A stretch of 64,000 bases of DNA from a phage: sequence record PZ154895.1, one strand, 5' to 3'. Each line of letters starts with the position of its first letter. Position 1 is the stretch's first letter. Shown here piece by piece: positions 8,297 through 9,129 of the stretch. Position numbers and translations under genes: made by a program. The notes beneath the pieces were generated by a model, which worked only from the letters and a program-made list of their open reading frames with translations, did no database searches and was not told the origin of the DNA.

Positions 8297-8751
8297 TGGA
8301 ATTTAAAGACTTTTCAACGGGTCTTTATGTAGCAGCTAAGTTTTCAGAATTAACACTTGATGCGCTGGAAGAACTCCAGCGCTCTTTACGTGTTCCTAAT
8401 CCAGTTCCTAGAGAAAAAATTCATTCGACCATATGTTATTCAAGAGTAAATGTTCCGTATGTTCCATCAAGCGGAAGTTTTGAAGTAGCTTCTTCTGGAC
8501 ATTTAGAAGTATGGAAAACACAAGATGGATCGACTCTTGTACTTGTGCTAGATTCTGAATATCTGCGCTGCCGACACATGTATGCGCGGGCACTAGGTGC
8601 TACACATGATTTTGATGATTACACACCGCATATAACATTGTCTTATAATGTTGGGCCCTTATCATTTAGCGGTGATGTACAAATTCCGGTCGTATTAGAT
8701 CGTGAATACAAAGAGCCTCTTAAACTCGATTGGGCAGATGATTTAAAATAA
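8296..8751 (+). CDS. 57B: gp57B, 2H-phosphoesterase (Acb1-type anti-CBASS nuclease)
   Basis: 151 aa; two H-x-T/S motifs (HSTICYS, HITLSYN) typical of 2H phosphoesterases; position after 57A. Confidence 0.8.
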
Positions 8752-8763
8752 TTTCACAAAGTT

Positions 8764-8803
8764 GTTTACATGCTGATGAGGTAGTGATACTATTACCTCA
8801 TCA
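8764..8803 (+). promoter_or_regulatory. early promoter with stem-loop (PeSL-like): GTTTACA-N17-TACTAT inside 10-bp inverted repeat
   Basis: -35 8764-8770, -10 8788-8793; inverted repeat tgatgaggta (8774-8783) / tacctcatca (8794-8803). Confidence 0.6.
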
Positions 8804-8823
8804 AAATTAATTAGGAAAATAAA

Positions 8824-9081
8824 ATGAAAACTTTCAAAGAGTTTGCTACAAAAACTACTATCACTGAATCTTCACACGGTATGGAAGTAAAGCTTGGAAT
8901 GGCTTTAGCTGAAGCTGAGCGTCTTTTATCTCGTATTAAAGAACTTGCTGCTGCAGTCGATCCTTCATCTTTTAAAGGAGACCAAACTAAAGTTAAAGCA
9001 CTTTTAGCATTATGCTCCGATGCAGGAGAAATTGCTAAAAATGGTTCTAAGATGAAGAAACGATTAGAAGATTTAAAATAA
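8824..9081 (+). CDS. internal protein-like (N-terminal capsid targeting sequence MKTFKEF..ITE)
   Basis: 85 aa; CTS-like N-terminus; paralogous to ORF 17106-17387; early promoter upstream. Confidence 0.55.
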   Translation: MKTFKEFATKTTITESSHGMEVKLGMALAEAERLLSRIKELAAAVDPSSFKGDQTKVKALLALCSDAGEIAKNGSKMKKRLEDLK

Positions 9082-9093
9082 TTTCACAAAGTT

Positions 9094-9129
9094 GTTTACA
9101 GAAGGGTAGTAGTGTGATACTATTACCCT
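9094..9129 (+). promoter_or_regulatory. early promoter (PeSL-like), second copy of the same cassette
   Basis: identical 31 nt to 8740-8770 including -35; -10 gatactat; inverted repeat agggta/taccct. Confidence 0.6.

Follow-up and report, generated by a model that had tools for sequence, protein, structure and literature searches.

In a 64,000-nt stretch of the phage sequence record PZ154895.1 (hereafter the window; coordinates run 5' to 3' on the strand shown), an identical 31-nt sequence, GATTTAAAATAATTTCACAAAGTTGTTTACA, occurs at 8740-8770 and again at 9070-9100, on either side of the small gene ip5. Here we describe these repeats, the early promoters and hairpins associated with them and their relationship to gene exchange among T4-like phages. 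The window belongs to a Tequatrovirus (T4-like) genome and is oriented opposite to the T4 GenBank record; a 2-kb probe taken from it matched 866 phage records, with a best identity of 96.8%. The order of genes around the repeats, gp1 - 57A - 57B - [internal protein] - trna.4 - trna.3 - trna.2 - tRNAs - segB, is that of T4. The open reading frame (ORF) between the repeats belongs over its full length to PHROG 3499, 'internal head protein' (E 2e-49), and its DNA is 95.9% identical to RB15 ip5 (Z35082.1, 'DNA for Ip5, Ip9, Ip7, Ip8'). The gene is found in 269 phage records, T6, T2 and RB32 among them, and homologues in RB15, RB32 and wV7 carry the Ip5 annotation. Because the gene order matches that of T4 and the intervening ORF is ip5, the repeat pair is assigned to the polymorphic ipI locus between 57B and trna.4. 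Internal proteins (IPs) of T4 begin with a capsid-targeting N-terminal leader of approximately 10-15 residues, MKT[YF][QK]EF..., with a Glu cleavage site at its end. The N-terminus of the ip5 product, MKTFKEFATKTTITE followed by S (MKTFKEF...ITE), fits such a leader, and the same pattern is seen in all neighbouring IP ORFs of relatives. The features of the locus are as follows.

7329-8054: dNMP kinase gene (gp1).
8296..8751, + strand: gene 57B, 151 aa, from the ORF list; PHROG 755, E 5e-68; collinear with T4 57B.
8740..8770, + strand: repeat copy 1, exact match; end of 57B and its stop, A/T-rich UP-like tract, -35 TTTACA at 8765-8770.
8765..8793, + strand: predicted T4-type early promoter of ip5; TTTACA, 17-nt spacer, TG at 8785-8786, -10 TACTAT at 8788-8793.
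8774..8803, + strand: hairpin 1; 10 Watson-Crick pairs, 13 pairs when two G-U and one U-A are included (8774-8786 with 8791-8803).
8813..8826, + strand: Shine-Dalgarno AGGAA and ip5 ATG (8824); the block AGGA(A/G)AATAAAATGAAA is common to cassette 2 (repeat family D5, pair alignment).
8824..9081, + strand: ip5, 85-aa internal head protein, PHROG 3499; the variable module between the two cassettes.
9070..9100, + strand: repeat copy 2, exact match; end of ip5 and its stop, A/T-rich tract, -35 TTTACA at 9095-9100.
9095..9123, + strand: predicted early promoter of the trna.4 homologue; TTTACA, 17-nt spacer, TG at 9115-9116, -10 TACTAT at 9118-9123.
9101..9132, + strand: hairpin 2; 14 pairs including G-U, in a register unlike that of hairpin 1.
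9152-9337, + strand: trna.4 homologue, 61 aa, PHROG 1692, with Shine-Dalgarno GAGGAG at 9140-9145; the conserved right flank of the variable slot.

The original prediction, which was made by inspection of the window, had noted the 31-nt identity and its recurrence over 27 nt at 40842-40868. Both 31-nt copies are exact, where none is expected by chance (0 in 100 shuffles); no further match to GATTTAAAATAATTTCACAAAGTTGTTTACA with up to three mismatches was found in the window, and the 27-nt version is present as TAAAATAATTTCACAAAGTTGTTTACA (repeat family D2). Copy 1 contains the last three codons and stop of 57B, GAT TTA AAA TAA (...DDLK-TAA), and copy 2 those of ip5 (...EDLK-TAA). Both stops (8749-8751 and 9079-9081) fall within the A/T-rich sequence TTTAAAATAATTT, and ORF positions and the promoter scan agree that, as had been proposed, each repeat spans the end of the upstream gene, its stop and the -35 of the next promoter. 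The promoter boxes were called by a consensus scan, and the transcription starts near 8800 and 9130 are predictions. The two copies are in all likelihood the left ends of intergenic cassettes of approximately 95 nt that bracket ip5 and run from the last codons of the upstream gene through the first codons of the next, in the order stop in an A/T-rich UP-like tract, -35, spacer with the 5' arm of the hairpin, TGn/-10, 3' arm, Shine-Dalgarno and ATG. No other indel in the window is flanked by a repeat as long as the cassette pair, which aligns over approximately 94 nt. Unrelated upstream genes of the IP locus also tend to end in (L/K)K-stop right before the promoter, encoded by TTAAAATAA, AAAAAATAA or ATAAAATAG, with the tails DDLK in 57B, EDLK in ip5, IYLK in ip9, FRKK in ip6 and GIK in ip7 (window, T6 (L048), RB15 (L047) and loci L004-L039); as a result, the final codons and the A/T-rich UP-like tract overlap. 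The idea that the DLK-stop of ip5 was copied from 57B was rejected, since a distant ip5 homologue (locus L016) ends in KKRLEDLK in a different cassette context.

The prediction depended on indel breakpoints lying at these cassettes in related genomes, and alignment of the window with ESH35, PYps32T and T4 located such breakpoints there, both at the exchange of ipI for ip5 and at the junctions of an ip6 indel, so this expectation was borne out. The four genomes are near-identical from 57B via cassette 1 to ATGAAAAC. T4 has ipI in the place of ip5, and similarity ends just past the start-codon/leader block, to resume at ATTTCACAAAGTTGTTTACA. An additional gene in PYps32T and T6, ip6 (a 77-aa IP annotated as ipVI in phage GiZh), is bounded by a third cassette, and the ip6 junction between the window and PYps32T is a 21-nt overlap at 9114-9134 that coincides with the TGn/-10 core. 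Over its left 41 nt cassette 2 of the window is the same as T6 cassette 2, and beginning with GTGATA it is the same as T6 cassette 3. In T6 and PYps32T, too, ip5 has the identical 31-mer on either side; RB15 has an exact second copy, and the truncated start of its record bears what remains of the first.

Across 36 loci recovered with the 57B protein, the interval from 57B to the trna.4 homologue holds between 0 and 5 IP genes, and genomes with identical or near-identical 57B carry different IP sets. The contents between 57B and trna.4 include the following.

Window and ESH35: ip5 (the single-gene arrangement 57B-ip5-trna.4 is also found in phages such as pSs-1 and ESH35).
L004, PYps32T and T6: ip5 and ip6.
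L035: ip6.
L034: ip7-like gene.
T4: ipI.
RB15: ip5-ip9-ip7-ip8.

A crossover between the two copies in the window, which are 330 nt apart, would excise ip5, and natural variants consistent with recombination between neighbouring cassettes are seen among relatives. In addition, we identified four hybrid cassettes (L027 at 4802 and 4469; L020 at 4843 and 5174), in which a spacer and 5' arm of the ATAGGGTA, GGGGTTTTAG or GAGGGCTAT type is joined to a 3' arm and 5' untranslated region of the cassette 1 type, TACCTCATCAAAATTAATTAGG. The arms are mismatched in three of the four, with folding energies of -5 to -7 kcal/mol compared with -13 to -18 kcal/mol in the parental types, while the hybrid at L027 4469 retains weaker pairing (-12.2 kcal/mol). 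The cassette at L020 5174 (region 5130-5240) also carries a 19-nt tandem duplication of the core, GATACTATTACCTCATCAA. Crossover points fall in three conserved blocks, namely UP/-35, TGn/-10 with the first bases of the 3' arm (GTGATACTATTACC), and Shine-Dalgarno/ATG/leader, and this distribution fits general homologous recombination over short patches rather than a single-site mechanism.

The inverted repeat that was said to follow every copy is present after copies 1 and 2, where the arms tgatgaggta/tacctcatca of the first lie at 8774-8783/8794-8803 as described, but not after the third copy. Hairpin 1, whose 3' arm takes in the 3' part of the -10 box, folds as + strand RNA at -17.4 kcal/mol (z = -5.7), and hairpin 2 at -15.9 kcal/mol (z = -3.5), with 0/200 shuffles as good in either case; on the minus strand hairpin 2 reaches just -11.2 kcal/mol (z = -1.0). 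Folds calculated with DNA parameters are weaker overall, at -7 to -8 kcal/mol, with hairpin 1 at -8.1 kcal/mol (z = -4.2 and -4.3 on the two strands). An Rfam search of 8500-9400 gave sub-threshold chance hits only, and the region therefore contains no known RNA family. We collected 51 distinct IP-locus cassettes, 38 of which fold at -10 kcal/mol or better with very different stem sequences: TGATGAGGTA/TACCTCATCA, GGTAGGACTAT/ATAGTCCTACC, TGTAGGGATAT/ATATCCCTACA, GAGGGCTAT/ATAGCCCT(a)TC and, in phages with the -35 GTGTAC, GATGGGATAA/TTATCCCATC. Comparison of the window with PYps32T provides an example of a compensatory change from a G-C to an A-T pair (GAGGTA/TACCTC and GAGATA/TATCTC, respectively). 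When a fixed register was imposed, 64.9% of cells were paired compared with 31-57% when the partners were slid, and both sides had changed in 63 cells compared with 38 in shuffles (0/500 reached 63). One register does not fit all cassettes, as at least two exist, and the single-register count therefore understates the pairing. These results suggest that the hairpin is under selection.

A bias between strands bears on which nucleic acid carries the structure. The + strand fold is the more stable in 31 of 41 strong cases (Wilcoxon p = 7e-4), and the outer stems, outside the promoter-constrained bases, contain 21 G-U and 7 A-C oppositions (p = 0.0125), an asymmetry derived from related, non-independent sequences and in part from promoter-constrained bases. 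This bias is suggestive of a role in sense RNA and, because the sequences are related, serves as a lead only. With its 5' arm upstream of the predicted start, the hairpin would be restricted to read-through RNA or single-stranded DNA.

Taken with the exchange and indel junctions, these features are very probably best explained by cassettes that bracket ip5 and recombine through patches of homology. Each cassette would act as a strong early promoter of the sigma-70 type, from which its gene receives a transcript of its own, and the three conserved blocks would provide short patches of homology at which the general recombination of the phage crosses over, so that IP genes may be deleted, inserted or exchanged as intact, self-expressed units. 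The positions of the junctions and the hybrid cassettes suggest that in this sense the cassettes may 'drive' shuffling. In sense RNA the hairpin would most likely serve as a stabiliser of 3' ends or as a weak attenuator that insulates neighbouring units.

Several observations weigh against this explanation. Neither hairpin is a G+C-rich stem followed by a run of T, as an intrinsic terminator would be: hairpin 1 is followed by AAAATTAATT and hairpin 2 by ACTACCGAGG, and a terminator scan made no call at either cassette, though it called the nearby terminators at 12207 and 12768. The G-U asymmetry has the limits given above. The third copy of the repeat shares 27 nt yet has neither breakpoint nor hairpin, and shared promoter sequence is therefore insufficient.

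40842..40891, + strand: third copy, 27 nt with an early promoter; -35 TTTACA at 40863-40868, 17-nt spacer, -10 TATTAT at 40886-40891; no hairpin.

The fold of 40862-40910 (-4.3 kcal/mol, z = +0.6) is no better than that of shuffles, no breakpoint lies within approximately 400 nt in the comparison with T4 and PYps32T, and the corresponding region of both phages also has the sequence; as the hairpin is missing, the third copy is a plain early promoter. The link between promoters and indels across the whole window is also weak. Chained BLAST alignments of the window to T4 and PYps32T contain 34 gaps of at least 40 nt, and among 109 + strand gene junctions a breakpoint was found at 9 of the 17 with an early promoter and at 27 of the 92 others (odds ratio 2.7, one-sided Fisher p = 0.055). 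Most indels fall at cassette-free junctions (27 of 36 breakpoint junctions lack a promoter), and approximately seven involve homing-endonuclease genes. Cassettes are clearly involved at the IP locus and, beyond it, at a few sites (13266/13657, 27903 and 62671), but most indels in this genome are left unaccounted for by them, and given the marginal odds ratio we make no claim to the contrary.

In the published promoter-early stem-loop (PeSL) model the hairpins are efficient terminators, which would make each IP gene a fully isolated early unit. Each hairpin does lie approximately 20 nt past the upstream stop codon, and in RB49/phi1 the drop in lacZ expression caused by a PeSL stem-loop was close to that caused by a strong terminator (PMC2839356). 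Efficient termination is nevertheless unlikely here, given the missing T-run and terminator calls and the assessment of Arbiol et al. that the stems at T-even IP loci are weaker and more AT-rich than those of RB49 (PMC2839356). It would also conflict with late expression. The sole late-promoter consensus within 1.1 kb upstream of 57A-57B-ip5, TATAAATA, lies at 7691-7698 inside gene 1, with none between there and ip5, and this head protein would therefore be made late only if transcription read through hairpin 1. Late ip5 expression thus probably requires read-through, a need that weighs both against the explanation above and against the 'terminator' part of the PeSL model as applied to this pair of elements. 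On these grounds (no T-run, no terminator call and probable read-through) we favour a stabiliser or weak attenuator over an efficient terminator, and the label 'composite promoter-terminator', considered for both elements, was not adopted because no terminator was called. Published maps of T4 start sites or termination sites were sought in the literature, but no usable one was found.

Somewhat less likely again is that the identity is a footprint of selection on T4 early promoters, each small gene simply having its own promoter, with no special part in recombination and with indels trimmed to gene boundaries by selection. T4 early promoters do share a consensus that extends well past the hexamers (PMC2988021), six window promoters have related upstream motifs (CACAAARYTGTTTAC), and the third copy away from breakpoints and the marginal window-wide enrichment would follow naturally. 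Against this, the exact identity includes non-consensus positions and coding bases, the divergence between ipI and ip5 is bounded by the cassette blocks, the ip6 junction lies within the -10 core, and hybrid cassettes with mismatched arms are the direct products expected of crossovers.

The proposal that the hairpin is a DNA-level cruciform or single-strand signal for a structure- or sequence-specific protein such as endonuclease VII, which would start targeted recombination, was raised by Arbiol et al. with reference to T4 deletions at GGGC/GCCC inverted repeats (PMC2839356) and draws on the significance of hairpin 1 with DNA parameters on both strands and on the covarying stems, which imply that structure and not sequence is kept, but it is improbable because crossovers spread over three blocks with no single fixed site, register and stem sequence vary so that no conserved protein-binding motif is evident, the excess of G-U over A-C and the weaker minus-strand folds fit sense RNA better than a symmetric cruciform, and the stability as DNA is modest.

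The likeness to PeSLs that the original prediction had pointed out is upheld for copies 1 and 2, which have the published anatomy of an upstream stop in an A/T-rich tract, a -35/-10 early promoter, a stem-loop, a Shine-Dalgarno and a start codon (PMC2839356; PMC4122927), and which lie at a T-even internal-protein locus, for which both papers refer back to Repoila et al. (1994) as the earlier case. As in PeSLs, the stem-loop overlaps the -10, the elements sit beside variable small genes, and homologous recombination is the proposed route, with mini-circles possible. The PeSLs of RB49/phi1, for which promoter activity, terminator activity and mini-circles have been reported (Arbiol et al., 2010; PMC2839356), differ in their near-perfect TTGACA/TATAAT hexamers, G/C-rich stems and measured terminator activity, whereas the stems in the window are richer in AT, have no T-run after them and probably terminate poorly. 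Comeau et al. (2014; PMC4122927) later applied the PeSL name to T4/PST as well, giving the consensus TTTACW-N17-TAYWAT, which the window promoters fit. Arbiol et al. also state that Repoila et al. (1994) saw PeSL-like sequences at the two T-even IP loci, and regard the elements there as analogues rather than homologues, built on T4 early promoters and with weaker, AT-richer stems (PMC2839356). The T-even IP loci described in 1994 (Repoila, Tetart, Bouet and Krisch, EMBO J; RB15 Z35082.1) share with the window the locus, ip5, the flanking repeat and a proposed role in IP shuffling; judging by citing papers and the GenBank record, nothing essential differs, the arrangement being 57B-ip5-trna.4 in the window and ip5-ip9-ip7-ip8 in RB15. 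T4 early promoters as a group, the UP/-35/TGn/-10 class (Hinton, 2010; PMC2988021), likewise have a GTTTAC(A/T) -35, 17-nt spacing, TGn, a TAnnnT -10 and an A/T-rich upstream tract on the early-transcribed strand, but unlike cassettes 1 and 2 only some of those in the window have a hairpin bracketing the -10.

A further analogy, made by the authors of the PeSL model, is with integron cassettes (PMC2839356). Like the units of the IP locus, attC/attI cassettes are small single-gene units with structured flanking repeats that are inserted and excised whole and may form circles; at the IP locus, on the other hand, no integrase is known, crossovers are spread over the cassette rather than confined to one site, and each unit brings its own promoter. 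If the hairpin were an active DNA-level recombination signal of the kind considered above, such as a cruciform cut by endonuclease VII or bound by some other factor, the cassettes would be integron-like sites instead of passive homology and would constitute recombinase-free, integron-like gene capture in which the hairpin is rebuilt by compensatory change after hybrid-forming crossovers, an idea to which we give only a slim chance.

The repeat pair is therefore a correct rediscovery of a described early-promoter-hairpin cassette rather than a new element: the locus, ip5, the flanking blocks and the shuffling idea go back to the literature of 1994, and the PeSL concept generalised them in 2010 and 2014. 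Our additions are modest, comprising the hybrid cassettes as crossover footprints, the quantified stem covariation, the sense-strand bias and a sequence-based doubt about termination, and they bear on what the hairpin is for, which published work has left open. Internal proteins accompany the phage DNA on injection, and some of them, at least, counteract defences of the host. Swapping them as ready-to-express units helps to explain the quick adaptation of T4-like phages to new hosts, of which the window offers a further example, not a new principle.

Beyond the IP locus, a hairpin bracketing the -10 is present at only approximately one in four early promoters of the window and the matching T4 region; in the window such hairpins occur only at the early promoters at 8764, 9094, 13266, 25126, 62168 and 62671. 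The four outside the IP locus are strong (25126-25163, 62168-62205, 62671-62708 and 13266-13310; -18 to -22 kcal/mol), and three of them constitute repeat family D7. The promoter at 62671 lies at the left edge of a 600-bp insertion that is not in T4 or PYps32T, and 13266 and 13657 bound a 381-bp segment missing from PYps32T. At 27875-28515 a 572-bp insertion relative to T4 and PYps32T has split an early promoter: the old upstream region and -35 (GTCACAAAGTTGTTTAC) now precede a new -10 and the inserted gene, and the old -10, TGGTACTATACAACTATCAACT, is left past the insert with only CACAAAG as an upstream remnant. A second class of hairpin is found at the early promoters at 17389-17452, 29904-29968 and 20494-20556 (-22.6, -25.5 and -22.4 kcal/mol; z = -5.8, -6.6 and -4.8, respectively). 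Here the 5' arm lies in the spacer, ahead of the predicted start, and its partner is the Shine-Dalgarno region of the following gene, so that the ribosome site would be sequestered in read-through RNA and free in transcripts from the gene's own promoter, as described for T4 gene e (PMC3014915).

Other differences between the window and its relatives have different boundaries. A 36-nt terminator-like hairpin, CCCCAACCGAAAGGTTGGGGCTTTTT, is present at 12204-12239 and 12763-12798 in copies that are 89% identical and flank a 524-bp segment missing from T4, an indel bounded by repeated terminators and not by promoters. Five hairpins of the GGGCTTCGGCCC type (family D4; 14309, 41725, 45364, 51389 and 53559), two of which are identical over 22 nt, are probably intrinsic terminators. 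Of the homing-endonuclease genes of T4, the window lacks segC, I-TevII (together with its intron), mobC and mobB, the mobD and b-gt/segA regions are replaced, and segB is placed differently in a rearranged tRNA cluster; these differences map to 2486, 10370-11895, 25873-26836, 38077, 39356-39376, 44150-44175 and 58278-59225. The second internal-protein locus (T4 ipIII/ipII), at 17104-18357, is largely replaced relative to T4, with a 75%-identical stretch remaining at 17410-17735. Finally, insertions of 220-790 bp relative to T4 occur at gene junctions at 40141-40466, 42338-42599, 45551-46146, 49277-50064, 53336-53556 and 56523-56763; their flanking repeats are never longer than approximately 16 nt, and several lie at overlapping stop/start junctions.

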